Assembly (NCBI GenBank): GCA_951812955.1
Contig: OX638340.1
Span: 2,272,001 to 2,336,000 of the forward strand
Source: an uncultured Gemmatimonadota bacterium
GTDB taxonomy: Bacteria > JAAXHH01
Direction of reading: 5' to 3'
DNA: 64,000 nucleotides
Part shown: one piece after another, positions 15,608 to 43,144 of the stretch
Numbering within the stretch: the first letter of the stretch is position 1
How the letters are laid out: every line of letters begins with the position of its first letter
Position numbers and translations under genes: made by a program
The notes under the pieces: generated by a model
The model's database searches: none
Told to the model about the DNA's origin: nothing
What the model saw: the letters and a program-made list of their open reading frames with translations, nothing else

Positions 15608-15723
15608 ATTTCCGCGACTTTTCCTACTAATGCTATAACTGCATTTCCCGGCGGTTCTTCACGATTCGATGAACCCCTGCCGCGAACGTACTGCTCGGTC
15701 GAGCTAACTTTAAGAGGTTCGTG

Positions 15724-16289: not shown

Positions 16290-16505
16290 ATGAAAAACGA
16301 GTTCACTGCGATTATCGAAAGGGACGAAGAAATATACATTGCTTTTTGTCCCGAAATACCGGAAGCGAATGGCCAAGGCGCGACCAAGGATGAAGCCTGC
16401 GAGAGCTTGGCAGAGGCCATTGCCCTTGTATTGGAAGATCGCCGGGAAGAGGGGCTTCGCGGAGCAGCCCCTGGAGCTATTCGAGAAAGAGTCACCATTT
16501 CGTGA
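16290..16505 (+). CDS. hicB: HicB-family antitoxin (short UPF0150 form)
   Basis: MKNEFTAIIERDEEIYIAFCPEIPEANGQGATKDEACESLAEAIALVLEDRREEG.... Internal start within track ORF 16119-16505. Confidence 0.8.
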   Translation: MKNEFTAIIERDEEIYIAFCPEIPEANGQGATKDEACESLAEAIALVLEDRREEGLRGAAPGAIRERVTIS

Positions 16506-16690
16506 AACGGAGGAGTTTAATCCGACATCTCCAAAGACACAACTGTCAACTCAAACGCGAAGGACGTTCGCATTCATTGTGGTGTAATTCGATAACGGGG
16601 GCTGTCGAAACAATTCCTCGTCATACCGAGATTTCTAACCGTCTGGCGCGTAAGATATGCCGAAATCTCTCAGTTCCTGATATACTGTAA
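16502..16690 (+). CDS. hicA: HicA-family mRNA interferase toxin
   Basis: 62 aa: MKRRSLIRHLQRHNCQLKREGRSHSLWCNSITGAVETIPRHTEISNRLARKICRNLSV. The GTG start overlaps the hicB TGA (GTGA). Confidence 0.8.
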   Translation: MKRRSLIRHLQRHNCQLKREGRSHSLWCNSITGAVETIPRHTEISNRLARKICRNLSVPDIL

Positions 16691-16839
16691 CCATGACTAA
16701 TCGTCTTGTGATTTGATCAACAAAGTTGTTTGCAGAATTACCTGTTCTCCAGAAGTACCCCTCCCATCTGAAACAGCACTCCTCAAAGGCAATCTGAGTC
16801 AGCGTTACGACGTCAAGATGACGTTTATCTTCGAAGTAC

Positions 16840-21222: not shown

Positions 21223-21267
21223 CTGGACACGGTTATTCATACCTTCTGGACACGGTTATTCATACCT
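21223..21267. repeat. exact 23-bp-period tandem duplication spanning the permease stop codon
   Basis: ctggacacggttattcatacct at 21223-21244 and 21246-21267. The second copy encodes ...RYE* of the minus-strand gene (TAA at 21256-21258). Confidence 0.9.
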
Positions 21268-27029: not shown

Positions 27030-29555
27030 CTACTGTTCCAACAGCATGAAGCTGGTCGTCCTGGTTGCGCGCTGCCCGGAATGCCGGTCCTCAAGCGTCA
27101 CCGCGAGCACATACACACCGGCCGTCAGGTCCGTGGTATCGATCGCCGTGTACTCGGCTTCCTCGGACGTATCGCCCTCGCCCTCATACGACAGAACGAC
27201 GGTCTGCAGGTCGCCGGACCGATCAACCGGACGGCCGCCCGTATCCGGCATGCCCTCGGGTTTGATCTCGTAGTAGGTCTGGTAGGAGGTCCGTCCCGCT
27301 TCGTCTCTGTCCAGGTTATAGATCTCGTAATACACGTACACCAACTGGCCCCGCCCATATGCGCGCAACGGATGCGGCACGATGTTCAGCCCTTTCCTGA
27401 CGAACGATCCGGTCTGGTCGGTCGGCGTTATACCGGTAGACATCTTGAGGCCGCTGATCATCAGATCGCGTCCCTGGTAATCGGGGATGGAAACCGGTTT
27501 CCTGTAGACGCCGATGCGCTGGGAGGTTTCATCCTGCATCTCCACGGCCGCCGTGAACTGTCCCGAAGGCACCAGGACATCGACGGCCAGCGTGTAGGCC
27601 GATACCCGGGCCTGTTCGGAGCTTATCATCCGCTTCGGCCGTTCGATGGGACCGAAGCGGAACTTCTGATTAAGCACCGGCTTGTTTACCGTATCGCGCA
27701 GCGTGGCCTGGTTTCTCAGGAAAGTTTCGTTTCCAAGGCCGTCGGTGACGTCTCCGAACTGCCAGACTGGAAGGCTGTAGACCAGTTCCATTACCGTTTT
27801 CTTGCCGTTCCCCCGGAAAGTGGTGATGTCGAAGGCATAGTCCAGGCCGTCGCCTCCGAAATCGTGCTCGTAGTCTTCCGGGCTACGCTCGATCAGCTGT
27901 TCGGCGATCCGCTGGGGATGATGCATTTCCTCCTTCTGAATTTCGTTGAATGCAGCGTTGTTATCGGGTTCCGTGGAGATCATCAGCGTGCGCAGGGGGT
28001 AGTCGAACCGGCCCCCTCCCATCTGGTCGACGAAGAACAATTCCATGTCGTGCGCCGCGTATACCCAGCTCTCCGACCTGTAAGACGGCCCCATCGCCCG
28101 TCTTTGAACGATCCTGGTTTCGTAGTTGACCTCGGATTGATCATTTAATGAAGACTCTTCTGTGGCTACGTTGTCCGCGGTGAGGTTGTTCACGGTCAGA
28201 AGTGATGCAGCGCCGAAGCCCGCGCGATTCTTCGTGTCCTGTTCCAGCTGGACGGACACCTGTCCCCGGTCCACTTTCAAGCGGTAACCGAACTGCCAGT
28301 TCTTTTCGCGAATGGCGTCCACGGCCGGATTGCCGGTGGGCATGTAGATATCTCTTGGGTCCTCGTATGAGCGGAAGAGAAACCGTCGGCGGTCGTCGGG
28401 CTCGCCATAGCGGACGTATATCTCCCCACGACGGTCGTAGGGGAACCGAGCCGAGGAAAAGTGTATACGTGCATACATCACCCGCTTGTAATGTTCGACC
28501 AGGCGTTCGTTCTCGACCGTGGCTGGATTCGGGTCCCGGGCATTCCAGAAGTCCTGCCACAACCTGTCGCGGGCCGGTCCTTTCGCGGCCTCCCAGGCCG
28601 CCAGCTCGTCGGGAGAAGCCACGTGGGCCAGGTCCCAGTAAATCTCCTGTTCCTCGGACTCAAGCCCCTTGATGTAGGTCTCCAGCGACCGCTGCAGCAG
28701 GTCGTACTGTTTCTTCGAACTCATGGACAGCGCTTCGAACTGCGTCAGCATGGTCCGGATCAGGTCGGGCGTGATACCCTCCATCTCCTCCGCCATCTTC
28801 CGGAGCTGTTCTGCGCCCCGCTCGTAATATTCGAACCGGTGACAGATGCCGGCGAATTTCCGAAGCGTCTCGGGATGGTCCGGATTGACCTGGTACTGTC
28901 TCAGGTAATTAGTCAGCGCCTTGATGTAGTCGTCGTAACGGTCCCTGACGCGCTTCCCGTGGTCCGCCAGCTTCAGTTCCTCGTAACAACGGCCGAGTTG
29001 ATAGAATGCGTCCGGATGCTCGGGATCCAATTCTACAGTCCGCTCAAAGTACGCCCGGCCATCCTGATGACTGCCGATCAGCCAGGCGGTATCGACCTGG
29101 TCCATGTACGTCAGGCCCATGATGTACTGGATCTGGGCGTTTTCGGGATCCAGTCTCATGGCGGTGCGCAACGCCTTCCGGGCATCGAGGCGCCGGTGCG
29201 GCATGCGATTGTATACGAGCCCCAGGCCCATATGGCCAGGTGCCCATTTCCTGTCTCTCCTGACCGCGTGCTTGAAGGCCTTGAGCGCTTCTGCGTCCCT
29301 GTTCAGTGCGAACAGGGCCATGCCGAGCCAGTAGTGGCCGGAAGCACTGTTCTTATTATCCAGTACCGCCTGCTGCAACGGAGGCAGCGCTTCACGGTAC
29401 ATGCCCAGTTCGTAGTAGCGTTTGCCTTCTTCAAGCGATGACTGGCTTGCCAGCCCTGCATCCGGCGGCAAGGCGGACTGGGCCTGCGAGCGACCGAATG
29501 GGACCCACACGGTCAGAATCAGTGCGGCGGTTGAAATGAAACGGAGTGTAGTCAT
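27030..29555 (-). CDS. secreted TPR-repeat protein with GWxTD-like domain (paralogue 1)
   Basis: Start at MTTLRFISTAALILTVWVPFGRSQAQ (signal peptide). TPR repeats, then ...FWNARDPNPATVENERLVEHYKRVMYARIHFS...PYDRRGEIYVRYGEPDDRR, which follows the FW..RDP...NE...Y..R...A...F...GWxTDRG.IY..YG.P layout, but the GW is replaced by PY. Confidence 0.65.
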   Translation of the reverse strand: MTTLRFISTAALILTVWVPFGRSQAQSALPPDAGLASQSSLEEGKRYYELGMYREALPPLQQAVLDNKNSASGHYWLGMALFALNRDAEALKAFKHAVRRDRKWAPGHMGLGLVYNRMPHRRLDARKALRTAMRLDPENAQIQYIMGLTYMDQVDTAWLIGSHQDGRAYFERTVELDPEHPDAFYQLGRCYEELKLADHGKRVRDRYDDYIKALTNYLRQYQVNPDHPETLRKFAGICHRFEYYERGAEQLRKMAEEMEGITPDLIRTMLTQFEALSMSSKKQYDLLQRSLETYIKGLESEEQEIYWDLAHVASPDELAAWEAAKGPARDRLWQDFWNARDPNPATVENERLVEHYKRVMYARIHFSSARFPYDRRGEIYVRYGEPDDRRRFLFRSYEDPRDIYMPTGNPAVDAIREKNWQFGYRLKVDRGQVSVQLEQDTKNRAGFGAASLLTVNNLTADNVATEESSLNDQSEVNYETRIVQRRAMGPSYRSESWVYAAHDMELFFVDQMGGGRFDYPLRTLMISTEPDNNAAFNEIQKEEMHHPQRIAEQLIERSPEDYEHDFGGDGLDYAFDITTFRGNGKKTVMELVYSLPVWQFGDVTDGLGNETFLRNQATLRDTVNKPVLNQKFRFGPIERPKRMISSEQARVSAYTLAVDVLVPSGQFTAAVEMQDETSQRIGVYRKPVSIPDYQGRDLMISGLKMSTGITPTDQTGSFVRKGLNIVPHPLRAYGRGQLVYVYYEIYNLDRDEAGRTSYQTYYEIKPEGMPDTGGRPVDRSGDLQTVVLSYEGEGDTSEEAEYTAIDTTDLTAGVYVLAVTLEDRHSGQRATRTTSFMLLEQ

Positions 29556-29574
29556 GATCTCTATGTGATAAACC

Positions 29575-29631
29575 GGGTACGGTATGGCCTGCAAGGTACG
29601 GTGTAGCCCGCATGGTACGATATGGCCTGCG
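29575..29631. promoter_or_regulatory. 3 x 19-bp direct repeats upstream of TPR-GWxTD paralogue 1
   Basis: gggtacggtatggcctgca / aggtacggtgtagcccgca / tggtacgatatggcctgcg, ending 20 nt upstream of the ATG at 29555. Confidence 0.4.
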
Positions 29632-29704
29632 AACAAACTGAACCGTCGATCAAAGCGGCTGTTTCCCCACACGTTCGGCGACGCGGGGAAGACCGAAGAA
29701 AGTC

Positions 29705-32125
29705 CTACCGTTCCATGACCAGGAAGTTGGCTGATTTGGAAACGGTACTTCCCGCGTGCAGGTCGGTAAGCCTGACAGTAAGTATATACTCACCCGCCGG
29801 CAGACCCGAAGTATCCAATGAAGTATACTCACGGTCCTCGGCTGAAGACCCTTCTCCCGCGAAGGCCATCATTACCGTCTGCATGTCTCTTTGCCTGCGG
29901 GCCGACCAGCCACGCCTTTCAGTAACCTCCAGGGGGCTGATCTCGTAGTGGAATTCGTACGCTGTTCTCTTCTCCCTGTCCAGGCTGAGGTTGTATATCT
30001 CGCAGTAAACGTAAACGGGGTTTCCCCGAAGGTAGAGCCGTCCCGGATTGGGCGTGATGTTCAATCCCTTGCGCACAAAGGGGCCCTGTACGCCTGTCGG
30101 AGCGATGATGGTGGCCAACTTGAGATCGCTGATGAGTAATTCTTCGCCGCTGTAATCAGACAGGGTGACTGGCTTGCGATACACTCCGATCCGGCTCGTC
30201 GTCTCGTCCTGCACCTGGACCGCCAGCGTGAAGCGTCCCGCCGGCGCCACGACGCTAGCGGGCAACGAATACACCGGGACATTCACTTGGCTTTCGGCCA
30301 TCGGCCCCTTCGGCCGGTCGAAGGGGCCGAAACCGAACTCGTGGGTGAACTGCGGGCTCATGGTCGAATCACGCAGGGTGACCAGGTGCGCGAGCCGGGT
30401 CCTGATCCCTCTGCCGTCCGACACCTCACCGAACTGCCATATGGGTATGCTGTAGGACAGATCCAGTTCCGTTGCACCGTTGTCCGCCCTGAAACTTACG
30501 GCGTCGAAGGCGTACTCGAGCGGCTCTCCGCCGTAGTCGTGCAGGTATTCCTCCGGGGCTTTGGCGATCAGTTCTTTGGCGAGCCGCCGGGGACTGAACC
30601 TTTCCTGCCGGGCCATCGCCTGCGGGTTGGTAAGCAGGTTGCCCTGGGGGTAATCGAATCGGCCCCCGCCGAACTGGTCGACGAAGAACAGTTCCAGGCC
30701 ATGCCGGACGTATACCCAGCTCTCGGTAGTGTATCCCGCACCCATTTCCTTTCTCTCCCTCTGCAGGTCAAAGACCGCGGATGATGCAACGATTCCGTCG
30801 GCCAGCGTTCCGCCAAGGGAGTCCAGTTCTGCTACAGTTACCCCCTCGGGCGGGACGATCGTCAAATTGCCCCGGTCGACACGCAATTGATAGCCAAACC
30901 GGTTATTCTGCTCTCGGATCGCGTCCACTGCCGCGTCATCGGAAATCGTAGCACTTTGATAGGCAATCCGATCTGCGTTATAGACGTTGCCGCGGCGGTC
31001 TTCCGGTTCACCGTAACGGACGTACATCTCGCCGCGGCGGTCATAGGGGTGCTGTCCCTGTGAAAAATGGTACCGGGCATACATTACGCGACGGTAATGC
31101 GCTACGAGGCGTTCGTTGGTCACGGTGGCGGGATTCGAATCCCTGGCATTCCAGAAGGCATGCCAGCGCGCATCGCGTTCGAGTCCGCCGGCTTCCTTCC
31201 AGGACGCCAGCTCGTCAGGAGTAGCCACGTGCGCCAGATCCCGGTAAACGCGCTGTTCGTCAGGGCCAAGAAGGGAAATGTACGTTTCAAAAATCCCATG
31301 CAGCACATCCGGCCGTGATTTCGAGTCTTCGGAAAGCGTGCTGAATTGCGTAAGCAGGGTCTGGACGATAGCTGAACCCGAATCTTCAAGTTCTGCTCCG
31401 GCATGTTCCAGTAACTCAACGGCCAGACCATACCTTTCGGAAAGAAGGGCCAGATAGACGAAACGGCCGAGTGCGTCGTAATGGCCGGGATTTACCTTGA
31501 ACTGCGAGATATATGCCGCCATCGCCTTGTCGAATTCGGGCGACTCGGGCCGTTCAAAACAACGGCCGATCTGAAAATACGCATCGGGATGGGAAGGATC
31601 CAATACCGCCGCTTTGAGGAAATAGTTCCGGCCGTCCCGGCCGCCACCCAGAATCCGGTCGGTCTTTCGCGGATTCATATGGGCGATTCCGATATGGTAC
31701 TGGATTTCCGGGTCGTCAGGCGCCAGCCTGGCCGCCATACGCAAGGCGTGACGCGCGTCCAGTCTTCGGTATTTCAACTGAATGTAGGACTTGCCCAGCC
31801 CCACGTAGCCTAACGCCAACTTCTCGTCCAGTTCGACTGAACGCTTGAACGAACTTACCGCCTTCCGGTATTGCTCCAACCCGTATTGAGCCATGCCGAG
31901 CCAGTAGTGGGCGGGCGCCGAACCCCCATCAGCCTCGACGGCCTGATTAAAGTACGGCAATGCTTCCGCGAACTTTTCCTGGTCGAATAGCGTCCGGCCC
32001 GCTTCCAGGGGAGTCCGCTGGCCGGTTTCAGCGACTGTATCCGTTGCGGAGGATTGGGCCTGTAGGCGACCCTGCATGAGTAAAACGAGCAGCACCGCTA
32101 CCAGAAGAACAGGGTATCTGGTCAT
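29705..32125 (-). CDS. secreted TPR-repeat protein with GWxTD-like domain (paralogue 2)
   Basis: 806 aa. Signal peptide MTRYPVLLVAVLLVLLMQGRLQAQS. TPR repeats. ...FWNARDSNPATVTNERLVAHYRRVMYARYHFS...HPYDRRGEMYVRYGEPEDRR. Collinear with paralogue 1. Confidence 0.65.
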   Translation of the reverse strand: MTRYPVLLVAVLLVLLMQGRLQAQSSATDTVAETGQRTPLEAGRTLFDQEKFAEALPYFNQAVEADGGSAPAHYWLGMAQYGLEQYRKAVSSFKRSVELDEKLALGYVGLGKSYIQLKYRRLDARHALRMAARLAPDDPEIQYHIGIAHMNPRKTDRILGGGRDGRNYFLKAAVLDPSHPDAYFQIGRCFERPESPEFDKAMAAYISQFKVNPGHYDALGRFVYLALLSERYGLAVELLEHAGAELEDSGSAIVQTLLTQFSTLSEDSKSRPDVLHGIFETYISLLGPDEQRVYRDLAHVATPDELASWKEAGGLERDARWHAFWNARDSNPATVTNERLVAHYRRVMYARYHFSQGQHPYDRRGEMYVRYGEPEDRRGNVYNADRIAYQSATISDDAAVDAIREQNNRFGYQLRVDRGNLTIVPPEGVTVAELDSLGGTLADGIVASSAVFDLQRERKEMGAGYTTESWVYVRHGLELFFVDQFGGGRFDYPQGNLLTNPQAMARQERFSPRRLAKELIAKAPEEYLHDYGGEPLEYAFDAVSFRADNGATELDLSYSIPIWQFGEVSDGRGIRTRLAHLVTLRDSTMSPQFTHEFGFGPFDRPKGPMAESQVNVPVYSLPASVVAPAGRFTLAVQVQDETTSRIGVYRKPVTLSDYSGEELLISDLKLATIIAPTGVQGPFVRKGLNITPNPGRLYLRGNPVYVYCEIYNLSLDREKRTAYEFHYEISPLEVTERRGWSARRQRDMQTVMMAFAGEGSSAEDREYTSLDTSGLPAGEYILTVRLTDLHAGSTVSKSANFLVMER

Positions 32126-32237
32126 GCCAAACCAACTTGTAGGGGGAAATGACGAAAAGAGATGGAACCTGCTTTAACAGATCCAGGTAATGCCTGCAAC
32201 CTACCCTTATTCGCGGCCACAGTCAAACAAAAGCGGC

Positions 32238-34610
32238 CTAATCTCGCCGCAGGGTGTCCGCCGGGTTGAGCATGGCGCTTCGGAAGGTATGCACGCTCAC
32301 GGTGAGCAGGGCGGTGGCCAGGACAACCAGTCCCGCCGCGACGAAAGGCGCAGCACCGATCTCCGTCCGGTAGGCGAAGTCCGCCAGCCACTCGTTCATG
32401 AGCCACCAGGCGGCCGGCCAGGCGAGGACGTTGCCGATCACCACGAGGACGACGAACTGCCTCGACAGCAGGCCGACTATATCTGAGACCGCGGCGCCCA
32501 TCACCTTGCGGATGCCGACTTCCCGCGTGCGGCGCGCGATGTCCAGCGACACGAGTCCATATACACCCAGGCAGGCGATCAGCAGGGCGAATACCGCGGA
32601 ATAGGTGAAAATGCGCGCAAGGTTGGCTTCACCCTCGTAGAATCGGGCGATGTCGTCATCAAGGAAGGAATACTCGAAAAGCGATTCCGGGGCGATCTCC
32701 ATCCATGCCGCTCTCAACAGATCCAACGTGGCAGGCAGGTCCCGCCCGCTGACGCGTACCAGGAGGAAATTAACACCACCCTGGGTTTCCTCCCCGAAGG
32801 AAGCGGGATTCATCGTCAGGATTACCGGCTCTATTTCTTGATGCATCGACTGGTAGTGGTAGTCCTCCAACACGCCGATGACCGTATATCCGTGGGGCAG
32901 GGTCCGTCCGAGGGGGTCGTCCCATTCCATCACCCTGGCCGCGGCTTGGTTGATTATACATGACCCGGATTCGTCGTTGCCGAACTCCCGGGAAAAATCT
33001 CGTCCTGAGACCAGGTTCAGCTCTAGCGCCTTCACGTAATCGTAATCCACCGTGAACATATATGCTTCAAGCTTGTTCCCGTCCTTATCTGTATAGGCGG
33101 ACTGACCCAGGCCCCGACCGAAGGTGTTGGAAGCTCCCGTCACCAGGATTACGTTCTCATACGAGTTTATCCTGGATTTATAGACGTCCGCGGAGTTGGA
33201 ATTGGGCCCCATGTGGATGACGATGACGTTTTCCTTGTTGTATCCCAGATCTGTGTTCATGACGAAGTCCAACTGTCGGGTCATGACGAGTATGGAAACA
33301 ACGAGTAAGGCAGACAGGCCGAACTGGACGACCATCAGGCCGCGGATAACCAGGTTTGGGCTCCCGATCCGAACCTGATGTCTGAATACGGCAACGGGAT
33401 TGAAACGGGAGAGGATCAGGGCGGGATAGCTCCCGGACGCCAGGGCAACCAGGCCAGTCAACACTAGTAGCGCGGCGATCGTAGAGCCGTTGGAGAGATA
33501 ATCTAGGACGTATGAGCTTCCCGCCAGCGTGTTGAATACAGGAAGAAACAGGTGGGCCAGGATAACGCCTAAGATGAGGGCGAAGCAACTCAACACCGCG
33601 GTCTCACCCAGGAACTGTTTCATGATCTGGGTTTTCTGCGCACCGAACACCTTCCGCAGTCCAACCTCCCTGGCGCGCGAAGACGATCGGCAGAAGGCCA
33701 GGTTCATGAAATTCACGCAGGCGATGAAAAGAACGAAAAGCGCCGTGCAAATCAGTATGTAAGACCTGTTGGGATCGCTCGTGGTACCCTGGCCAAACCT
33801 CACACCCTGAGCAAGATACATGTCCGTTAAAGGCTGCAATTCCAGGTATGGCGATCCCATCTGTGAAAAATGAGTCTCGACAAAACCCGGCAACTGGTTT
33901 TCAAGCATGTCTGCCATTTCCGGATCCGACAGCTCGACGTAGGTTGAGGAGACACTGTAGTTCCAATTGCCGATCGCCTGATTCGTCCAGTTGTCGATAG
34001 CAAACATTTTGTCGAAGGGGATCAGGAAATCGAACCGTATGCTGGAATTAACCGGAGTGTTCTCTGCTACCCCGGCCACCAAAAACGGTTCACCTCGTAT
34101 CGTGAGTTGCCTGCCCAGGGGGCTTCCCGTCCCAAAATACTTCTCGGCGGCGGACTGGCTGATCACCACCGAGTTCAGTTCGTTCAGGACCGTCCCGGGA
34201 TCACCTTCGATCAATGGGAAGGAGAACACGCTGAATATCGATGGATCGCTATACAGAACGTGTTCTTCCCGGAACACATCATTACCAACACGGACTTCCG
34301 CCCCTCCGGTGGTTCGTATTCGCACGGTCTGTTCGACGCCGGGATACTGTTCCTTAAAGGCAGCGGCAAGTGGAAGAGGGGTAATCCCACTGGTATATAA
34401 GTTATCCTCGAAACCTGATCCACCGACGTTGACCCGGTAGATCCGGTCCGCCTTCTCGTGAAAGGCGTCGTAGGTCCACTCCTGGCGCACGAAGAGAAAT
34501 ACGAGGAGGCTGCAGGCGATGCCGGTGGACAGGCCCAGCGTGTTGATGAAGAAGTAGCCCTTGTTGCCGAACAGGTGCCGAAACGCGATGACAAGGTGGT
34601 TTTTCAGCAT
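32238..34610 (-). CDS. orphan FtsX/MacB-type ABC permease (copy A)
   Basis: 790 aa: MLKNHLVIAFRHLFGNKGYFFINTLGLSTGIAC.... Two FtsX modules (...AREVGLRKVFGA..., ...TREVGIRKVMGA...). No ATPase gene nearby. Confidence 0.85.
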   Translation of the reverse strand: MLKNHLVIAFRHLFGNKGYFFINTLGLSTGIACSLLVFLFVRQEWTYDAFHEKADRIYRVNVGGSGFEDNLYTSGITPLPLAAAFKEQYPGVEQTVRIRTTGGAEVRVGNDVFREEHVLYSDPSIFSVFSFPLIEGDPGTVLNELNSVVISQSAAEKYFGTGSPLGRQLTIRGEPFLVAGVAENTPVNSSIRFDFLIPFDKMFAIDNWTNQAIGNWNYSVSSTYVELSDPEMADMLENQLPGFVETHFSQMGSPYLELQPLTDMYLAQGVRFGQGTTSDPNRSYILICTALFVLFIACVNFMNLAFCRSSSRAREVGLRKVFGAQKTQIMKQFLGETAVLSCFALILGVILAHLFLPVFNTLAGSSYVLDYLSNGSTIAALLVLTGLVALASGSYPALILSRFNPVAVFRHQVRIGSPNLVIRGLMVVQFGLSALLVVSILVMTRQLDFVMNTDLGYNKENVIVIHMGPNSNSADVYKSRINSYENVILVTGASNTFGRGLGQSAYTDKDGNKLEAYMFTVDYDYVKALELNLVSGRDFSREFGNDESGSCIINQAAARVMEWDDPLGRTLPHGYTVIGVLEDYHYQSMHQEIEPVILTMNPASFGEETQGGVNFLLVRVSGRDLPATLDLLRAAWMEIAPESLFEYSFLDDDIARFYEGEANLARIFTYSAVFALLIACLGVYGLVSLDIARRTREVGIRKVMGAAVSDIVGLLSRQFVVLVVIGNVLAWPAAWWLMNEWLADFAYRTEIGAAPFVAAGLVVLATALLTVSVHTFRSAMLNPADTLRRD

Positions 34611-34687
34611 GATCGTTTTGCCTCCTGTCGCTTACGAGCTGTAAGCCGGAAAACGTTCCTGAGGAAACACGATCTTGGAATGGCAAA

Positions 34688-34718
34688 GGGGATCTACGGT
34701 TTCGACCCGTCGATCCCC
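34688..34718 (-). other. conserved hairpin in the Big_2-permease spacer (copy A)
   Basis: ggggatc-t-acgg-tttcgac-ccgt-c-gatcccc. On the transcribed strand it is followed by TTTGCCATT. It lies in a ~75-nt block nearly identical to 39608-39680, although the flanking coding sequence has diverged. Confidence 0.4.
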
Positions 34719-34779
34719 TGAAAAGTTGCATGTTGGTAACTATTGCGATGCCGGAACTTACGTAGTGCATTCCCGACTG

Positions 34780-36381
34780 TCAGTCAACGACAAACGTGTT
34801 TTCACTACGGCGAAAACTCCTATCATCGCCAAACGAAACATCATAAACCAGTCTATACTCACCGGCGACTTCCGGATCGTATGGGCAAGCGTCGAATTCC
34901 ACCCGTGTGGCCTCGATGTCTTCCCATGTACTGCCCATATCGTCGCTTCGCTGCCATACGGAGTAATGGACCGTCATGGGGATACCTAACGGCTGAGTTG
35001 GGTAGTTGTTTAGTTCAGCACGAAAGAGTGAACTTGCACAGTATTCTATAGTTATAGGAGTATATCCTGGTCCCGTGAATATCAACTTACCGGGCTCGAC
35101 CTTCCAACCTTCCCACGGGACATAGACTATCTCGTCGACTGGCTCGTCGACGCCTTCGCCGCCATCCCCGCCATCCCCGCCTTCACCACCTTCCCCTTCA
35201 GTCGGAACCATGACCGTGATACTCACCATGGCCGACACGTCGCCGGACGCGGCCGTGACTACGGCCATGCCGTTGCCCACCGCTTCTACCAATCCATCCT
35301 CGTCCACGGTGATCACGTTTTCGTCACCGCTCGTCCACGTGACGGCCGGTTCGGCAATGGCATTGTCGTTCCCGTCGCTGACGGAAACCATGAGTTGCAG
35401 GGTCTGTTCGATCTCGGTCAGCGTGGTGGCATCGGGTGCGACCTCGATGCTGATGCCGGCCGGAACCTGGGCGACGGTGATCGACGCAGTCCCCATAGCG
35501 TCTCCGGCCTGTGCCGTGATCTCCGCCATGCCGTTGTCCACCGCGGTCACAAGCCCGTTCTCGTCCACGGTGGCCACGGCGTCATCGGCGCTTGACCAGG
35601 TCACCATCACGTCCTCCATCGCGTTTTCGTGCTGGTCCAGCACGACGGCCGCGAGTTCCACGGTGTCGCCGATCGCTTCCAGCGTGTGCGCAGCGGGCTC
35701 GATCGTCAGGCTCGTCGGCACGGATACGGATACCGTGATGGACGCACTGGCGGACAGGCTGCCGGATGTGGCCGTGATCTCAGCCATCCCGTTACTCACC
35801 GCCGTTACAAGGCCCGCCCCGCTCACGGTCGCCACGGCGTCGTCGCCGCTCGACCAGGTGATGGACTGGCCGGACATGATGTTGTTCCGCTGATCCCGCA
35901 CCGTAGCCGACAACTGTACCGTTTCCCCGATCGCCTTCAGCGTATGGGACGTCGGTGCGACCGTGATCCGGGTCGGCACCGGCTCGGCCACCGTGATGTT
36001 CGCAGTGCCCGTCGCGTTGCCGGACTGCGCCCTTATTTGCGCGGCGCCGTTGGCCACGGCCGTCACCAGGCCATTTCCGCTGACAGTCGCCACCGCGGTA
36101 TTGCTGCTCGACCAAGTCACCGCCTGGCCGGTCATCGGATTGTTGTTCTGGTCCCTCACCATGGCCATCAGTTGCACGGTCGCGCCAATCGTCGCCAGCG
36201 TGTGCGAAGACGGCGTGACAGAAATGCTCGTCGCAACGGGCGCAGGCGGTGGAGCAGGCGGGGTCGGTGTGGACGGCTCGGGACTCGTCGGGCTGCTGTC
36301 CCCGCCACCGCATCCCGCCAGAAAAACCAGGTACAAGGATGCCGTGATCTTGGCGAACACGCGACTGTATGGACCAAACAC
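34780..36381 (-). CDS. lipoprotein with four Big_2 (bacterial Ig-like) domains and a Cys-containing C-terminal domain (copy A)
   Basis: 533 aa. GTG start after AAAGGAG. Lipobox LVFLAGCGG and Pro-rich linker. Four repeats of ...TLxAIGxTVQL...VxWSSxxxxVATVxxxGLVTAVxNG.AxIxA... Gly/Glu/Asp linker GEGGEGGDGGDGGEG. The ~120-aa C-terminal domain is unassigned. Confidence 0.85.
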   Translation of the reverse strand: MFGPYSRVFAKITASLYLVFLAGCGGGDSSPTSPEPSTPTPPAPPPAPVATSISVTPSSHTLATIGATVQLMAMVRDQNNNPMTGQAVTWSSSNTAVATVSGNGLVTAVANGAAQIRAQSGNATGTANITVAEPVPTRITVAPTSHTLKAIGETVQLSATVRDQRNNIMSGQSITWSSGDDAVATVSGAGLVTAVSNGMAEITATSGSLSASASITVSVSVPTSLTIEPAAHTLEAIGDTVELAAVVLDQHENAMEDVMVTWSSADDAVATVDENGLVTAVDNGMAEITAQAGDAMGTASITVAQVPAGISIEVAPDATTLTEIEQTLQLMVSVSDGNDNAIAEPAVTWTSGDENVITVDEDGLVEAVGNGMAVVTAASGDVSAMVSITVMVPTEGEGGEGGDGGDGGEGVDEPVDEIVYVPWEGWKVEPGKLIFTGPGYTPITIEYCASSLFRAELNNYPTQPLGIPMTVHYSVWQRSDDMGSTWEDIEATRVEFDACPYDPEVAGEYRLVYDVSFGDDRSFRRSENTFVVD

Positions 36382-36463
36382 TGCTGTCTCCTTTCGGCTA
36401 ATTACTGAAAAGCGGTTCGTTGTAATCTACCGTTCTTGATCTCGATGAACAGATTATCTGACT

Positions 36464-37057
36464 TCATGCACGCAGGCCCTTCATACTCTCCCGGGCCGCT
36501 TCGAGGGTCCGGTCGATGTCTTCTTCGGTATGGGCCAGGGACACAAACCCCGTTTCAAGGCGCGAAGGCGCCAGGTAGACGCCCCGGTCCAGCATATTCC
36601 AGAAGTATCGCCCGTACGTATCCGCGTCTGACGTGGAAGCTGCATCGAAATTGTTGACGGTCTGATCTGTGAAGAAGGTACACATCATGGAGCCCACACG
36701 GGTCAGGCAGGCCGGGACGCCGGCCGCTTCCGCCGCGGCGCGAAGGCCGTCGCCGAGGCGGGCGGCCAGGGATTCCAGCCGGTCGTAGACCCCGGGTTCC
36801 TGAAGCTGCCGCACCGTTTCATATCCAGCGGTCATGGCAAGCGGATTGCCGGACAGCGTGCCGGCCTGGTAAACCTCACCGGCGGGCGCCACGGTTTCCA
36901 TGAACTTTTCCTGGTCGAATAGCGCACGTCCCGCTTCCAGGGGAGTCCGCTGGCCGGTTTCAGCGACTGTATCATCTGCGGTGGATTGGGCCTGGAGGCG
37001 ACCCTGCATGAGAAAAACGAGCAGGACCGCTACCAGAAGTACAGGGTATCTGGTCAT
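36464..37057 (-). CDS. chimeric ORF at the duplication junction: signal peptide/first 52 codons of the TPR-GWxTD gene fused in frame to the last 145 codons of hemL (probably non-functional)
   Basis: MTRYPVLLVAVLLVFLMQGRLQAQSTADDTVAETGQRTPLEAGRALFDQEKF | METVAPAGEVYQAGTLSGNPLAMTAGY...KGLRA. The second part is base-identical to 41855-42294 (hemL 3' end). The first part is ~95% identical to 31971-32125. Confidence 0.8.
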   Translation of the reverse strand: MTRYPVLLVAVLLVFLMQGRLQAQSTADDTVAETGQRTPLEAGRALFDQEKFMETVAPAGEVYQAGTLSGNPLAMTAGYETVRQLQEPGVYDRLESLAARLGDGLRAAAEAAGVPACLTRVGSMMCTFFTDQTVNNFDAASTSDADTYGRYFWNMLDRGVYLAPSRLETGFVSLAHTEEDIDRTLEAARESMKGLRA

Positions 37058-37169
37058 GGCAAACCAACTCGTAGGGGGAAATGACGGAAAGAAATGGAAC
37101 CTGCTTTAACATATGCAGGTAATGCCTGCAACCTACCCTTATTCGCGGCCTCAGTCAAACAAATGCGGC

Positions 37170-39541
37170 CTACTCGCTCCGCAGGGTGTCCGCCGGGTTG
37201 AGCATAGCGCTTCGGAAAGTATGCACGCTCACGGTGAGCAGGGCGGTGGCCAGGACAACTAGTCCCGCCGCGACGAAAGGCGCAGCACCGATCTCCGTCC
37301 GGTAGGCGAAGTCCGCCAGCCACTCGTTCATGAGCCACCAGGCGGCCGGCCAGGCCAGGACGTTGCCGATCACCACGAGGACGACGAACTGCCTCGACAG
37401 CAGGCCGACTATATCTGAGACCGCGGCGCCCATCACCTTGCGGATGCCGACTTCCCGCGTGCGGCGCGCGATGTCCAGCGACACGAGTCCATATACGCCG
37501 AGGCAGGCGATCAGCAGGGCGAATACCGCGGAATAGGTGAAAATCAGCGCCAGGTTGTTCTCATCCTGGTAGAACCGTTCTATATCGTCTTCCATGAAGA
37601 AATACTCGTAGGGCGTCTCAGGCGCTGTCCCCTTCCACGCGTCCTCGAGCAGGGAAAGCGTGGTTGGCAGATCCCTGCCGCTGACCCGGACCAGGAGGAA
37701 GCCGTAACTGACCGAAGTGTTACCCATGGATGTGGGATTGAGGGAGAGTATAATCGGATCGATCTCCTGGTGCAGCGACTGGAAATGGAAGTCCTTGACT
37801 ACGCCGATTACCGTATACCCATGGGGCAGTTTGCGCCCGATCGGATCTTCCCATTCCAGCTTCTTTGCCGCGGCCTCGTTGATGATGCACGATTGGAACT
37901 CGTCGTTTACGAATTCGCTGGAAAAATCACGGCCACGGACGAGGTTCAGTTCAAGCGTCTCCAGGTAATCGCGGTCCACGGTCGCCATGAACGCTTCCAG
38001 CTTGTTTCCGTCCGGTCGGTGTAGGCAACCTGGGGCAAGAAATGCCCCTGACCAAAGGTGCTGGAAGTGCCGGAAACCAGGAGTATGTCTTCGTACGGTA
38101 TCACTTTGCTGCGAAAGATCTCCAGGTCGTTTGAATTGAAGGGGGCCTGGATGACTACCACGTTGTGCGGGTTGAACCCCAAATCCCCCGTCCGCACAAA
38201 GTCCAGCTGCCGGGTCATGATGAGAATTGAAATGACGAGCAACGCGGACAACCCGAACTGCACGACCATCAAGCCGCGCACGAAGAGATTCGGCCCTCCG
38301 ATCTGAACCTGTTGCCGGAAGATGGTGACGGGGTTGTAGTGTGAGAGCACCAGGGAAGGATAACTGCCGGAAACCAGGGCGACCAGCACGGTCAAACCCG
38401 TCAGCGCGGCCAGCGTGGATCCGTTCGTCAGGTAGTCCAGCACGAGGGACTTTCCCGCCAGCATATTGAAAACCGGAAGGAACAGGTGGGCCAGGGCCAC
38501 GCTCAGCACCAGGGCGAAGCAGCACAGCGCCGCGGTTTCGCCCAAGTGCTGTCCCATGATCTGGGTTCGGCGCGCGCCGTAAACTTTCCTGACACCGACC
38601 TCTTTCACACGCGAAGACGAACGGCAGACGGCCAGGTTCATGAAGTTGACGCAGGCGATGAATAGTACGAGCAGCGCCGTGCAAATCAGGATGTAGGACC
38701 GGTTGGGATCGCTGGTGGGACCCAGCCCGAATTTGACTTCCTGATCCAGGTAGATATCGGTGATGGGTTGCAGGATCAGATAGGGCGACGAGTAGGCCGG
38801 GAAATGGGTTTCGACGAATTCCGGCAGTTGACTGAGGAGCGATTCTACTCGATCCGGATCCCCGAGTTCGATGAAAGTGGCCGTGGACGAATAGTTCCAC
38901 TTTCCGATGGCATTCGATATCCAGGGGTTTATTTCCGGCGCCTTGTCAAAGGGTATGAGCAGGTCGAACCGAATACTGGAGTTATCCGGTCCGTTCTCCG
39001 CGACGCCGGTTACGGTCAGCGGAATGCCCTGTACCAGGAGCGTCCTGCCCGTCGGAGACTCCTGGCCGAAGTACTTCGCCGCGGCGGATTTGCTGACGAC
39101 CACTGAATTCGCCTCGCCGAGGGCCGTACCGGGATCGCCTTCGATCATCGTGAAGGAGAACATCTCGAAGAAGGACGGATCGCAGAAAAGGGCGTTCTCC
39201 TTGCGGAACGTATCTTCTCCGATGCGAATATCGGATGGATATTCCGTTATGCGCACGGTCCGGACCACGTCGGGATATTGCTGCTCCAGGGTAGCCGCGA
39301 GCGGGAGGGGAGTTCTCGCGCTTATGAACGGGTTGTCGTCGAAATCCACTCCACCGGCTGCGACCTGGTAGATCCGGTCCGATTTCTCGTGGAAGGCGTC
39401 GTAGGTCCACTCGTGGCGGACGAAGAGAAAGATCAGGAGGCAGCACGCGATACCGGTCGACAGGCCAAAAGTATTGATGAAGAAATAACCCTTGTTGGCG
39501 AACAGGTACCGCAACGCGATGACGAGGTTGTTTTTCACCAT
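37170..39541 (-). pseudogene. orphan FtsX/MacB-type ABC permease (copy B) with a 1-nt frameshift near 38010-38020
   Basis: The N-terminal 508 codons are read in ORF 37946-39541 (...VAYTDR then nonsense). The C-terminal ~280 codons (PDGNKLEAFMATVDRDY...TLRSE*) are in the frame of ORF 37170-38900. Copy A reads AYTDKDGNKLEAY across this point. Observed tacaccgaccggacggaaac appears to lack one base. Confidence 0.7.
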
Positions 39542-39617
39542 GATCGTATTGCCTCCTGTCGCTTACGCATGCAAGCAGGAAAACGCACCTGGGGAAAGAC
39601 GATCCTGCAATGGCAAA

Positions 39618-39648
39618 GGGGATCTACGGTTTCGACCCGTCGATCCCC
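39618..39648 (-). other. conserved hairpin in the Big_2-permease spacer (copy B)
   Basis: Sequence identical to 34688-34718. Confidence 0.4.
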
Positions 39649-39708
39649 TTAAAGGTTGCATGTTGGTAACTATTGCGATTGGGAACTTACGTTGTGCATT
39701 CCTGACTG

Positions 39709-41772
39709 TCAGGGGATGACAAACGTATTCTCACTACGGCGAAAACTCCTATCATCGTCAAGCGAAATATCACCAACCAGTCTATACTCACCGGCGACTT
39801 CCGGATTGTATGGGCAAGCGTCGAATTCCACCCGTGTGTCCTCGATGTCTTCCCATGTACTGCCCATATCGTCGCTTCGCTGCCATACGGAGTAATGGAC
39901 CGTAATGGTGACACCTAACGGAGTTGGGCGGTTGTTTAGTTCTCCACCTAAGAGTGAACTTGCGCAGTTTACTATAGGTATTGTAGCAAGTCCTGGGACC
40001 GTAAAAACCAACCGACCGGGCTCGACCCGCACACCTTCCCACGGGACGTAGGTGACTTCATCCACCGTAATGGTCACCGTGATGCTCACCATGGCCGACA
40101 CGTCGCCGGACGCGGCCGTAACTTCGGTCATGCCGTTGCCCACAGCTTCTACCAACCCATCCTCGTCCACGGTGACCACGTTCTCGTCACCGCTCGTCCA
40201 CGTGACGGCCGGTTCGGCAATGGCATTGTCGTTCCCGTCGCTGACGGAAACCATGAGTTGCAGGGTCTGTTCGATCTCGGTCAGCGTGGTGGCATCGGGT
40301 GCGACCTCGATGCTGATGCCGGCCGGAACCTGGGCGACGGTGATCGACGCAGTCCCCATAGCGCCTCCGGCCTGGGCCGTGATCTCCGCCATGCCGTTGT
40401 CCACCGCGGTGACCACGCCGTTCTCGTCCACGGTGGCCACGGCGTCGTCGCCGCTCGACCAGGTCACCATCACGTCCTCCATCGCGTTTTCGTGCTGGTC
40501 CAGTACGACGGCCGCGAGTTCCACGGTGTCGCCGATCGCTCCCAGCGTGTGCGCGGCTGGCTCGATCGTGATGCTCGTTGCCACGGGCTCGGATATCACC
40601 ATGACCGTGATACTCACCATGGCCGATACGTCGCCGGATGCGGCCGTAACTGCGGCCATGCCGTTCCCCACCGCTTCTACCAAACCATCCTCGTCCACGG
40701 TGGCCACGTTTTCGTCACCGCTCGTCCACGTGACGGCCGGTTCGGCAATGGCATTGTCGTTCCCGTCGCTGACGGAAACCATGAGTTGCAGGGTCTGTTC
40801 GATCTCGGTCAGCGTGGTGGCATCGGGTGCGACCTCGATGCTGATGCCGGCCGGAACCTGGGCGACGGTGATCGACGCAGTCCCCATAGCGTCTCCGGCC
40901 TGTGCCGTGATCTCCGCCATGCCGTTGTCCACCGCGGTCACAAGCCCGTTCTCGTCCACGGTGGCCACGGCGTCATCGGCGCTTGACCAGGTCACCATCA
41001 CGTCCTCCATCGCGTTTTCGTGCTGGTCCAGCACGACGGCCGCGAGTTCCACGGTGTCGCCGATCGCTTCCAGCGTGTGCGCAGCGGGCTCGATCGTCAG
41101 GCTCGTCGGCACGGATACGGATACCGTGATGGACGCACTGGCGGACAGGCTGCCGGATGTGGCCGTGATCTCAGCCATCCCGTTACTCACCGCCGTTACA
41201 AGGCCCGCCCCGCTCACGGTCGCCACGGCGTCGTCGCCGCTCGACCAGGTGATGGACTGGCCGGACATGATGTTGTTCCGCTGATCCCGCACCGTAGCCG
41301 ACAACTGTACCGTTTCCCCGATCGCCTTCAGCGTATGGGACGTCGGTGCGACCGTGATCCGGGTCGGCACCGGCTCGGCCACCGTGATGTTCGCAGTGCC
41401 CGTCGCGTTGCCGGACTGCGCCCTTATTTGCGCGGCGCCGTTGGCCACGGCCGTCACCAGGCCATTTCCGCTGACAGTCGCCACCGCGGTATTGCTGCTC
41501 GACCAAGTCACCGCCTGGCCGGTCATCGGATTGTTGTTCTGGTCCCTCACCATGGCCATCAGTTGCACGGTCGCGCCAATCGTCGCCAGCGTGTGCGAAG
41601 ACGGCGTGACAGAAATGCTCGTCGCAACGGGCGCAGGCGGTGGAGCAGGCGGGGTCGGTGTGGACGGCTCGGGACTCGTCGGGCTGCTGTCCCCGCCACC
41701 GCATCCCGCCAGAAAAACCAGGTACAAGGATGCCGTGATCTTGGCGAACACGCGACTGTATGGACCAAACAC
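39709..41772 (-). CDS. lipoprotein with six Big_2 domains and a Cys-containing C-terminal domain (copy B)
   Basis: 687 aa. The first ~355 aa are identical to copy A. Contains an extra 176-aa (528-bp) two-domain unit (d3-d4 repeated as d5-d6, ~95% aa identity). The C-terminal domain is related to, but diverged from, copy A. Confidence 0.85.
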   Translation of the reverse strand: MFGPYSRVFAKITASLYLVFLAGCGGGDSSPTSPEPSTPTPPAPPPAPVATSISVTPSSHTLATIGATVQLMAMVRDQNNNPMTGQAVTWSSSNTAVATVSGNGLVTAVANGAAQIRAQSGNATGTANITVAEPVPTRITVAPTSHTLKAIGETVQLSATVRDQRNNIMSGQSITWSSGDDAVATVSGAGLVTAVSNGMAEITATSGSLSASASITVSVSVPTSLTIEPAAHTLEAIGDTVELAAVVLDQHENAMEDVMVTWSSADDAVATVDENGLVTAVDNGMAEITAQAGDAMGTASITVAQVPAGISIEVAPDATTLTEIEQTLQLMVSVSDGNDNAIAEPAVTWTSGDENVATVDEDGLVEAVGNGMAAVTAASGDVSAMVSITVMVISEPVATSITIEPAAHTLGAIGDTVELAAVVLDQHENAMEDVMVTWSSGDDAVATVDENGVVTAVDNGMAEITAQAGGAMGTASITVAQVPAGISIEVAPDATTLTEIEQTLQLMVSVSDGNDNAIAEPAVTWTSGDENVVTVDEDGLVEAVGNGMTEVTAASGDVSAMVSITVTITVDEVTYVPWEGVRVEPGRLVFTVPGLATIPIVNCASSLLGGELNNRPTPLGVTITVHYSVWQRSDDMGSTWEDIEDTRVEFDACPYNPEVAGEYRLVGDISLDDDRSFRRSENTFVIP

Positions 41773-41854
41773 TGCTGTCTCCTTTCGGCTAATTACTGAA
41801 AAGCGGTTCGTTGTAATCTACCGTTCTTGATCTCGATGAACAGATTATCTGACT

Positions 41855-43144
41855 TCATGCACGCAGGCCCTTCATACTCTCCCGGGCCGCTTCGAGGGTC
41901 CGGTCGATGTCTTCTTCGGTATGGGCCAGGGACACAAACCCCGTTTCAAGGCGCGAAGGCGCCAGGTAGACGCCCCGGTCCAGCATATTCCAGAAGTATC
42001 GCCCGTACGTATCCGCGTCTGACGTGGAAGCTGCATCGAAATTGTTGACGGTCTGATCTGTGAAGAAGGTACACATCATGGAGCCCACACGGGTCAGGCA
42101 GGCCGGGACGCCGGCCGCTTCCGCCGCGGCGCGAAGGCCGTCGCCGAGGCGGGCGGCCAGGGATTCCAGCCGGTCGTAGACCCCGGGTTCCTGAAGCTGC
42201 CGCACCGTTTCATATCCAGCGGTCATGGCAAGCGGATTGCCGGACAGCGTGCCGGCCTGGTAAACCTCACCGGCGGGCGCCACGGTTTCCATGATTTCCC
42301 TGCGACCGCCATAGGCCCCCACGGGAAGTCCTCCCCCGATGATCTTGCCCAGGCAGGTCATGTCGGCCGAGATGCCGAATCGTTCCTGCGCTCCGCCGAA
42401 TGCGATCCTGAATCCCGTGATGACCTCGTCAAAAATCAGAATGATCCCCCGCTTCTCCGTCTCTTCCCGAATGGTTTCGAGAAAGCCTTCGGCCGGAGGG
42501 ATCATGCCCATGTTGCCGGCGACCGGCTCTACGATCACGCAGGCGACGTCGCCGCCCCGCTCCGCCAGGGTGCGCCGGACGGCCTCGACGTCGTTGTAGG
42601 GTAGATTGATGGTCATCTTCGCCAGGTCCGCAGGCACGCCGGGACTGTCGGGGATGCCGAATGTCGCGGCGCCGGAACCGGCCTGGATGAGAAAGCTGTC
42701 TCCGTGGCCGTGGTATCCCGCCTCGAATTTGACCGCCAGGTCGCGCCCCGTGTATCCGCGGGCGACGCGCAGGGCGCTCATGGTCGCTTCCGTGCCGGAG
42801 TTGACCATGCGTATCAGGTCGATGGACGGGAAGGCGGTCCTGACCAGTTCCGCCAGCCTGATCTCGGCTTCGGTGGGCGTGCCGAAACTCGTACCCCGTT
42901 CACAGGCCTTCTTCAGGGCCTCGACCACGGCGGGATGGCCGTGGCCCAGGATCAGCGGTCCCCAGGATCCCAGGTAATCGATGTACTCGTTGCCGTCCAC
43001 GTCGTAGACCCTGGAACCCGCGCCCCGGTCCATGAAGACGGGGCTTCCTCCAACCCGCCCGAAATTCCGCACGGGGCTGTTCACCCCGCCGGGCATGGAT
43101 CGCTGGGCCTGGTCGAAGAGGGTACTGGATCGGGAACGGTTCAT
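41855..43144 (-). CDS. hemL: glutamate-1-semialdehyde 2,1-aminomutase
   Basis: 429 aa: ...MPGGVNSPVRNF..., ...SGTEATMSALRVARGYTGR..., ...LGKIIGGGLPVGAYGGRREIME.... Confidence 0.95.
   Translation of the reverse strand: MNRSRSSTLFDQAQRSMPGGVNSPVRNFGRVGGSPVFMDRGAGSRVYDVDGNEYIDYLGSWGPLILGHGHPAVVEALKKACERGTSFGTPTEAEIRLAELVRTAFPSIDLIRMVNSGTEATMSALRVARGYTGRDLAVKFEAGYHGHGDSFLIQAGSGAATFGIPDSPGVPADLAKMTINLPYNDVEAVRRTLAERGGDVACVIVEPVAGNMGMIPPAEGFLETIREETEKRGIILIFDEVITGFRIAFGGAQERFGISADMTCLGKIIGGGLPVGAYGGRREIMETVAPAGEVYQAGTLSGNPLAMTAGYETVRQLQEPGVYDRLESLAARLGDGLRAAAEAAGVPACLTRVGSMMCTFFTDQTVNNFDAASTSDADTYGRYFWNMLDRGVYLAPSRLETGFVSLAHTEEDIDRTLEAARESMKGLRA

Follow-up and report, generated by a model that had tools for sequence, protein, structure and literature searches.

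The window analysed in this study, a stretch of 64,000 nucleotides (nt) of contig OX638340.1 from an uncultured Gemmatimonadota bacterium (assembly GCA_951812955.1), contains on its minus strand a chimeric open reading frame (ORF; 36464..37057), in which the beginning of a gene encoding a TPR/GWxTD protein is fused to the end of hemL, the gene of glutamate-1-semialdehyde 2,1-aminomutase (GSAM). Results of our analysis indicate that this chimera is probably a remnant of a duplication junction, which has no function of its own, is carried by an array of variable cassettes, and is kept open and hemL-like by gene conversion or recombination. Its history would begin with a tandem duplication of a segment comprising the hemL 3' end, a Big_2 lipoprotein gene, an ADOP/MacB-type permease gene, and the TPR/GWxTD 5' end, where illegitimate recombination at a microhomology of 2 nt would have joined codon 52 of TPR to codon 285 of HemL without a shift of frame. 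The chimera would have persisted since then as a passenger of the duplicated and highly variable Big_2/permease array, most likely without a function at the protein level, and its hemL-like and TPR-like halves would have been repeatedly overwritten from real alleles of hemL and TPR, via recombination or gene conversion. Owing to such overwriting, the frame could stay open and the sequence hemL-like even with the ORF itself under no selection. The array would also turn over, with one unit in some relatives and a differing order of permease types in different genomes, and the junction-bearing block would apparently have been exchanged between lineages that are about 20% diverged in nt sequence. 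The anatomy of the chimera, the single junction common to its carriers, the mosaic identity, the variation imported from real genes, the private changes at invariant sites, and the allele with a deletion were all observed directly; gene conversion as the mechanism, the lack of function, and the horizontal exchange are what we infer from them.

The chimeric ORF has an ATG start codon and 197 codons followed by a stop codon, and its translation contains no internal stop. Residues 1-52 (36902..37057, minus strand) represent the N-terminus of the TPR/GWxTD gene product; the relevant DNA is 93% identical to 31970-32125, with 11 of 156 nt different and four amino acid changes (L15F, S26T, T28D, and T45A). 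An earlier note on this DNA had reported changes in these 52 codons, which are present, but it counted five of them; the fifth is probably residue 53, which is already hemL-derived. The remaining part of the ORF, codons 53-197 with the stop codon (36464..36901, minus strand), is identical to 41855-42292, and the claim of the same note that this part has no substitutions relative to hemL holds: chimera residues 53-197 and the stop codon correspond to HemL 285-429 without a single nt difference. With nt identities of 93-100% between the halves and their parents, the fusion cannot be put down to chance similarity. A three-way alignment of the chimera with its two parental genes places the parental switch at 36902/36901, where TPR codon 52 is joined to hemL codon 285 with the frame retained, and the dinucleotide TC of the minus strand (36902..36903) is the only perfect microhomology. 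With a prior of about 1 in 3 for an in-frame join, the chimera junction is, as far as the alignment indicates, an illegitimate join that happened to keep the frame.

The description of this ORF as an in-frame chimera formed at a tandem-duplication junction, in which the start codon, the upstream spacer, and the N-terminal hydrophobic leader of the TPR gene are followed by 145 C-terminal residues of HemL, agrees with our results, as does its placement between the genes designated permease-B (37170..39541) and Big_2-A (34780..36381). Two features of chimeras of this type are present: the parental genes are parallel, with the breakpoints inside their coding sequences, and the product is an in-frame fusion from start to stop. 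The same in-frame, single-ORF fusion occurs in four other alleles. The chimera is truncated relative to both parents, as it retains 52 of 806 TPR codons, none of them within the region matched by the GWxTD domain model, and 145 of 429 HemL codons, without K267. The parental hemL (41855..43144, minus strand; 429 amino acids [aa]) is full length, scores 620 bits against TIGR00713 (cut-off 527.3), and matches GSAM chains of the PDB at E = 1e-166, with Lys267 located in the CLGK motif in the alignment to 3K28. The parental TPR/GWxTD gene (29705..32125, minus strand; 806 aa) matches Pfam TPR families and the NCBIfam model TIGR04514 (49.8 bits, cut-off 28).

Self-BLAST and windowed identity allowed us to delimit two duplication units. 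Unit A (31964..36913) comprises the TPR 5' end, permease-A (32238-34610), Big_2-A (34780-36381), and the copy of the hemL 3' end, and unit B (36896..42302) comprises the copy of the TPR 5' end, permease-B, Big_2-B (39709-41772), and the hemL 3' end. The identity between the units is strongly mosaic, from 100% down to 56% in the windowed profile. It is 93% across the TPR 5' end with its upstream spacer, 98-99% in the final 300 nt of the permease genes, 56-75% in their cores, and about 90% around the Big_2 3' end, and unit B carries an insertion of 528 bp. Extension of exact matches revealed a perfect tract of 1,590 bp, one copy of which (35314..36903) covers the 5' part of Big_2-A, the spacer, and the hemL-derived part of the chimera, and the other (40705..42294) the 5' part of Big_2-B, the spacer, and the 3' end of functional hemL. 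The Big_2 portion of the tract is about 1 kb long, and the hemL-derived part is included in full, up to the junction, where the tract ends. The lack of substitutions relative to hemL is therefore a property of a long homogenised tract, and neither a property of the ORF nor a sign of its recent origin; the asymmetry in substitutions between the two halves of the chimera arises because the hemL-derived half lies in this tract. Most likely, the tract was homogenised by gene conversion or a similar process, acting from hemL to the chimera or in the reverse direction. Interlocus gene conversion homogenises duplicated sequences, which is known as concerted evolution. The pattern in the window resembles it in that perfect or near-perfect patches adjoin strongly diverged segments of one tandem repeat and an apparently non-functional copy stays similar to its donor, but it differs from plain concerted evolution in that it also seems to involve exchange between genomes.

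The junction is not confined to the window. Related loci were gathered through protein searches, and the contigs of the matches were then compared. The searches gave a protein that is 100% identical to the chimera product and is encoded on a contig of 3.81 Mb (P0001), a 197-residue protein of 90% identity, and a version of 146 residues; the 90% cluster additionally held variants of 195 and 197 residues. Altogether, the chimera is present in the window and in six other metagenome assemblies, that is, in seven assemblies, in the form of five alleles that are 88.7-94.3% identical in nt sequence. Contig L081 (39 kb) encodes a 197-aa chimera in the order hemB, hemL, Big_2, intact permease, chimera, Big_2, permease, TPR, TPR2, M29 peptidase, and L086 a 197-aa chimera in the order Big_2 (cut by the contig start), permease, chimera, Big_2, permease, TPR fragment. 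Chimeras of 195 aa are encoded by L087 (8127-8714; hemB, hemL, Big_2, split permease, chimera, and Big_2, where the contig ends) and by L088 (Big_2 cut by the contig start, split permease, chimera, Big_2, and permease, where the contig ends). L084 and L085, which come from two samples and have identical sequences, encode a 146-aa version with an in-frame deletion of 51 codons between two DRT motifs. Neither a stop nor a frameshift was found in any of the five chimera alleles. The allele of L087 and L088 is shorter by two codons, ending in …ESMKFL*, and its 3' end has a cluster of changes ahead of the stop. The spacer upstream of the chimera is nearly identical across the chimera-bearing loci; in L087 and L088, the sequence immediately upstream of the start codon is GAGGAGG instead of GAGTTGG, which yields a motif similar to that of Shine-Dalgarno.

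The breakpoint DQEKF/[MI]ETVAP is identical in L081, L084, L085, L086, L087, and L088. In addition, codon 28 (36974-36976) is changed from ACG to GAT in the chimeras of the window, L081, L086, and L087, and this change is missing from the four TPR alleles that were examined (those of the window, L081, L086, and L089). Because the breakpoint is identical and the triple change of codon 28 is common to four chimeras, the junction must have arisen once. The change at codon 28 alters all three positions and creates GATGAT, which points to one event, a multi-nucleotide change or slippage, instead of three separate substitutions. L15F was also considered as a change common and specific to the chimeras, and was rejected, as the real TPR allele of L089 has it too, which leaves the change at codon 28 as the only marker. 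No match to the degenerate junction pattern DQEKF[MI]ETVAP was obtained in the JGI metagenome contigs, and a search with an 80-residue junction peptide missed even the identical P0001 and is uninformative with regard to further chimeras. Exact look-ups of the chimera, hemL, permease-A, and P0001 gave no recorded gene, and the nearest named relatives in NCBI records are metagenome-assembled genomes (MAGs) of Gemmatimonadetes/Gemmatimonadota.

The proposal that the chimera is young is not compatible with these data, since six other assemblies carry this junction in diverged alleles (89-94% nt identity), some of them in genomes with flanks only 77-82% identical to those of the window. The hemL-derived part of the L081 and L087 chimeras is only about 80% identical in nt sequence to the resident hemL of the respective contig, and over the longer repeat the identity is 73-75%; the chimeras of these two contigs are 89-93% identical to hemL of the window type. 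In a neighbour-joining tree, all chimeras cluster with hemL of the window and of L001, and hemL of L082, L087, and L081 lie outside this cluster. The block of L081 that comprises a permease of type y, the chimera, and Big_2-A (about 5000-9750) is 91-99% identical to segments of the window within 31964-36901, and the hemB/hemL and TPR/TPR2 flanks of L081 are only 77-82% identical to their counterparts. The gene order is circularly permuted: it is chimera, Big_2-A, permease(y) in the window, and permease(y), chimera, Big_2-A in L081 and L086-L088. These comparisons suggest an exchange of the duplicated block between lineages or a turnover of a longer ancestral array. Possibly, the junction was formed in a window-like genome, after which the array would have been expanded, contracted, or recombined, and the block exchanged. 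Two relatives have a single unit and no chimera. One of them, L082, is more distant; the other, L089, is a contig of 137 kb that is 91% identical to the window and carries hemL, a Big_2 gene of 687 residues, a third permease type, and TPR, although this is a short-read assembly, in which the single unit could conceivably represent a collapsed repeat.

The variable character of the array is also visible in its permease genes. At least three types of the ADOP-type permease (x, y, and z) can be distinguished among the genes compared (window 32238-34610 and 37170-39541, L081 5005-7377 and 9925-12300, and L089 13494-15872). Their cores are only 56-75% identical in nt sequence, their first ~200 nt are 80-94% identical, and their last ~200-300 nt are 96-99% identical; the types sit at different positions of the array in different genomes. 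On the basis of these comparisons, the ADOP-type permease gene looks like a cassette-like, recombining, hypervariable gene.

The pattern of differences between the chimera alleles is a further argument for the explanation that we prefer. A third protein search added 37 real HemLs of the clade (74-95% identical), which resulted in a comparison set of 42 real HemLs. Nearly every amino acid difference among the chimera alleles is a state found in some real hemL allele. For instance, K83, R84, N92, T96, I105, and D111 of the L086 chimera are the states of real hemL in L089 (P0259), and the 3' third of the same chimera is of the window type. Q132K, Q132R, S96D, and A59T of the chimeras are found in real hemL alleles too, and F15, P16, and P18 of the L084 chimera are the states of the real TPR gene of L089. 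Only seven residues are private to the chimeras as compared with the 42 HemLs: T76I and E179G in L081, T119I in L084, G70A in L086, and A108T, M124I, and E194F in L087. Within the first 140 aligned positions, four of the six private replacements of the chimeras, as opposed to 9 of 81 private replacements of real HemLs, are at sites invariant in the 42 HemLs (Fisher p = 0.004). As 44% of the sites are invariant, the private replacements of the chimeras look randomly placed. One of the residues affected, G70, is a part of the GTLSGNP motif and is invariant also in a wider alignment of 45 sequences. Only 2.8% of single substitutions create a stop codon, and the private changes are so few that selection is not needed to explain why the frame is open in every allele.

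The predicted product of the chimera cannot be an active GSAM. It scores 172.5 bits against TIGR00713, whose cut-off is 527.3, and covers only positions 276-421 of the 423 positions of this profile; its Pfam match is limited to the C-terminal quarter of Aminotran_3 (profile positions 269-374 of 403). The HemL-derived part starts at parental residue 285, which is 18 residues past K267, and consists of about 19 residues of the large domain and the complete C-terminal domain; it has neither the N-terminal segment nor the greater part of the cofactor-binding domain. K267, which lies in the CLGK motif, is presumably the lysine that forms the Schiff base with pyridoxal phosphate (PLP). The chimera product cannot be a glutamate-1-semialdehyde aminomutase, because it lacks this lysine and most of the cofactor-binding domain, and, judged by its sequence, it does not belong to the HemL family, as it fails both the score cut-off and the catalytic-lysine test. 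HemL itself is a class-III PLP enzyme of fold type I (PDB 2GSA, 3K28); residues 53-197 of the chimera model as the GSAM C-terminal domain, but, unlike HemL, the chimera lacks the N-terminal segment, about 220 residues of the PLP-binding domain, and K267, and its score is a third of the family cut-off. It also differs from HemL, which is cytoplasmic, in having a putative export leader. This leader, which by eye resembles a Sec signal peptide, is composed of a positive n-region (MTR), a hydrophobic core of 14 residues, and QGRLQA/QS with an LQA motif; the putative signal peptide MTRYPVLLVAVLLVFLMQGRLQA/QS would be followed by 28 further TPR-derived residues. Residues 6-34 are a low-confidence helix in the AlphaFold2 (AF2) model. 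The tryptic peptide that would span the junction of the chimera is FMETVAPAGEVYQAGTLSGNPLAMTAGYETVR.

The explanation that has to be weighed most seriously against that of a functionless remnant is the birth of a gene, which the earlier note had put forward as a possibility, next to that of a young gene remnant. According to it, the chimera would be expressed from the upstream region of the TPR gene, exported by means of the TPR leader, and maintained by purifying selection as a free alpha/beta C-terminal domain of HemL with a role in the periplasm or envelope, perhaps one tied to the Big_2 lipoprotein and the ADOP permease. Several results speak for it and against our reading. Seven assemblies with five diverged alleles all have an intact ORF, with the only large deletion being in frame, the upstream spacer has hardly changed among the loci, and the block appears to move with the cassette into divergent genomes. 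The C-terminal domain is complete in the window allele, and its residues 72-197 are modelled by AF2 from a 45-sequence alignment with a predicted local distance difference test (pLDDT) score mostly above 90 (residues 1-70 are of low confidence) and superpose on the C-terminal part of solved GSAM structures; a model of this kind is driven by co-variation within HemL and has no bearing on the stability of the domain in isolation. A stable exported protein, made of this domain behind a plausible signal peptide and served by the inherited upstream region, is conceivable. In a maximum-likelihood branch codon model (GY94 type, F3x4, fixed topology, single tree), the ratio of nonsynonymous to synonymous substitution rates (dN/dS, omega) is 0.28 on the chimera branches, and omega = 1 on these branches is rejected (p = 2e-5), although the assumption of one tree is violated by the data. 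Pairwise dN/dS between chimeras is 0.2-0.5, and parsimony gives an omega of 0.35 to 0.8, which varies with how private changes are ascertained; the underlying counts of nonsynonymous and synonymous changes (12:7 or 15:8 vs. 16:17) depend on ascertainment, and we do not rely on them. True purifying selection on the chimera would give the same low ratios.

Nevertheless, we consider gene birth unlikely, although the evidence against a function is indirect. The same branch model gives an omega of 0.096 on the hemL branches, with equality of both branch classes rejected (p = 0.002), and the Nei-Gojobori pairwise ratios for the hemL-derived part are 0.08-0.24 among real hemL and 0.25-0.33 between chimeras. 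As the allele differences are nearly all states of real hemL or TPR, the low omega of the chimeras may be inherited, being low because their sequence was repeatedly copied from, or recombined with, functional alleles that had already been filtered by selection. Four of the private replacements (G70A, T76I, A108T, and M124I) fall on HemL-invariant positions of the fold core, at about a random rate. The allele of L084 and L085 is devoid of 51 codons, which removes about 40% of the modelled C-terminal domain, and the relatives with a single unit do not have the ORF at all. In the window, the adjacent permease-B is frameshifted, which suggests decay of the unit copy. Finally, among the best 120 matches listed, stand-alone C-terminal domains of HemL are represented only by fragments and by these chimeras. 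The possibility of gene birth raised in the earlier note is not supported by these observations, above all in view of the allele variation held mostly in common with real hemL and TPR alleles, the private changes at HemL-invariant sites, the allele without 51 codons, and the two relatives without the chimera.

The remaining explanations seem to us less convincing still. The frame might be open for reasons independent of the protein, if translation of the ~600-nt junction stretch averted Rho-dependent polarity or kept translational coupling, so that Big_2-A, permease-A, and TPR stay expressed from upstream promoters; any open frame would do for this purpose. All the genes are on one strand with spacers of 82-170 nt, the signals of promoters and terminators are not above the expectation from shuffled sequences, premature stops are absent from all the alleles, whose one large deletion preserves the frame, and the private replacements disregard HemL conservation, all of which fits such a role. 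We find it rather improbable, since chance alone should leave the frame open with so few private mutations (seven replacements; only 2.8% of substitutions yield a stop), and since the inherited spacers may hold promoters of their own. A similarly low probability is assigned by us, jointly, to two further readings: that the chimera is a new exported small protein, composed of the TPR leader and the free HemL C-terminal domain, which has spread with the Big_2/ADOP-permease cassette between lineages ~20% diverged, or that the hemL/TPR-derived junction is a portable homology arm driving expansion and contraction of the array and its exchange between strains. An artefact of assembly, in which the junction would result from mis-joined repeats or co-assembled strains, is hardly credible. 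The perfect repeat of 1,590 bp and the mosaic identity can confuse assemblers, but the parents have only 2 nt in common at the breakpoint, which leaves no k-mer overlap to join them, and the window protein lies on a contig of 3.81 Mb. Moreover, the junction with both its flanks is found in six other assemblies obtained from different samples and with different assemblers, which by naming are of long-read style (L081, ptg...; L086-L088, ctg..._Nx) and of SPAdes/scaffold style (L084, L085).

The geometry of the window chimera is that of a textbook case of tandem duplication, and the kind of event is already known. In Drosophila, chimeric genes are formed where a tandem duplication has its two breakpoints within parallel coding sequences, and a change of cellular targeting can be the consequence (Rogers et al. 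2014, PMC4069613). As in these chimeras, the unit boundary in the window joins the 5' part of the downstream gene to the 3' part of the upstream one, and the promoter side and the targeting leader come from one parent and the domain from the other. Unlike them, the window chimera is bacterial and probably in an operon context, is conserved over several lineages rather than being a segregating polymorphism, and appears to be continually exchanged with the parental genes. In evolution experiments with Escherichia coli, chimeric genes and pseudogenes that are C-terminal fragments were described for icd/icdC beside prophage e14 and for cpsG paralogs, and the authors leave open whether the chimeras are adaptive or by-products (Maddamsetti and Orman 2026, PMC13626634). 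The window resembles these E. coli cases in that a C-terminal fragment of a housekeeping enzyme lies beside the locus and recombines with the functional copy. However, the E. coli chimeras result from deletions between paralogs and are full-length enzymes, and the window chimera results from a duplication that fused unrelated genes and contains a truncated, non-catalytic fragment.

If the explanation that we favour is right, the absence of substitutions relative to a parent need not mean that a duplicated fragment is young, and homogenisation with an essential parent gene can hold a functionless fragment open and enzyme-like across several lineages. This has consequences for annotation, in which such ORFs are called as short class-III aminotransferases, and for gene-birth screens, in which a dN/dS below 1 can be inherited from the donor gene. 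Were the chimera found to be both expressed and of use to the cell, it would represent a rare natural case of a bacterial enzyme domain retargeted through a duplication junction. Perhaps the locus is more interesting than the ORF, as an array of Big_2 lipoprotein and ADOP permease genes that gains, loses, and exchanges units between hemL and the GWxTD gene.

The order of genes on the minus strand of the window is hemB, hemL, Big_2-B, permease-B, chimera, Big_2-A, permease-A, TPR, and a second TPR/GWxTD paralog; the genes between the parents encode a Big_2-repeat protein and a duplicated MacB_PCD/FtsX permease of the ADOP type. Upstream of the chimera lies a copy of the permease-TPR intergenic spacer (37058..37169, minus strand), which is ~93% identical to 32126-32237, and downstream of it lies a copy of the hemL-Big_2 spacer (36382..36463, minus strand), which is identical to 41773-41854 and is included in the 1,590-bp perfect repeat. 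Co-transcription of the chimera with its neighbours is plausible, given the common strand and the short spacers. A scan for promoters and terminators gave counts no higher than those in shuffled sequences, and no Rfam element was found in the 26-46 kb region of the window.

The frameshifted permease-B (37170..39541, minus strand), an ADOP/MacB-like duplicated permease gene, is represented by two overlapping ORFs in different frames and has lost one G from a GGG run (CGGGAC > CGGAC) within 38001-38020 as compared with permease-A. The permease gene upstream of the chimera is intact in L081 and is split also in L087 and L088 (523+273 aa), where it is of another permease type; these splits may be true pseudogenes or errors of long reads. 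Big_2-B has two extra Big_2 repeats relative to Big_2-A (687 vs. 533 aa), which correspond to the extra 528 bp at about 40070-40597, and the 687-aa version occurs also in L089. The internal ~260-bp repeats of the Big_2 genes are 68-100% identical, and the number of repeats appears to vary by unequal exchange.

In the more distant L082, hemL (9130-10372) is interrupted by a frameshift at GGRK/EIMETV, which lies a few codons ahead of the point that corresponds to the chimera breakpoint in hemL of the window, and the TPR gene (15063-17466) is split too; both splits may be homopolymer errors of long reads. The closest named relative, L001 (Gemmatimonadetes MAG APA_bin_41), has hemL that is 93.7% identical in nt sequence to that of the window. 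Between its hemL and Big_2, there is a segment of about 1 kb (1867-2892) that is absent from the window and contains only small ORFs of 62-91 aa, and its contig terminates within Big_2. In the window, the second TPR/GWxTD paralog (27030-29672, minus strand; 45% aa identity) is directly downstream of the parental TPR gene, and a further ADOP-type permease paralog (21259-23688, minus strand; 33% aa identity) is located ~8 kb further downstream, so both the TPR/GWxTD and the ADOP permease families are expanded locally.

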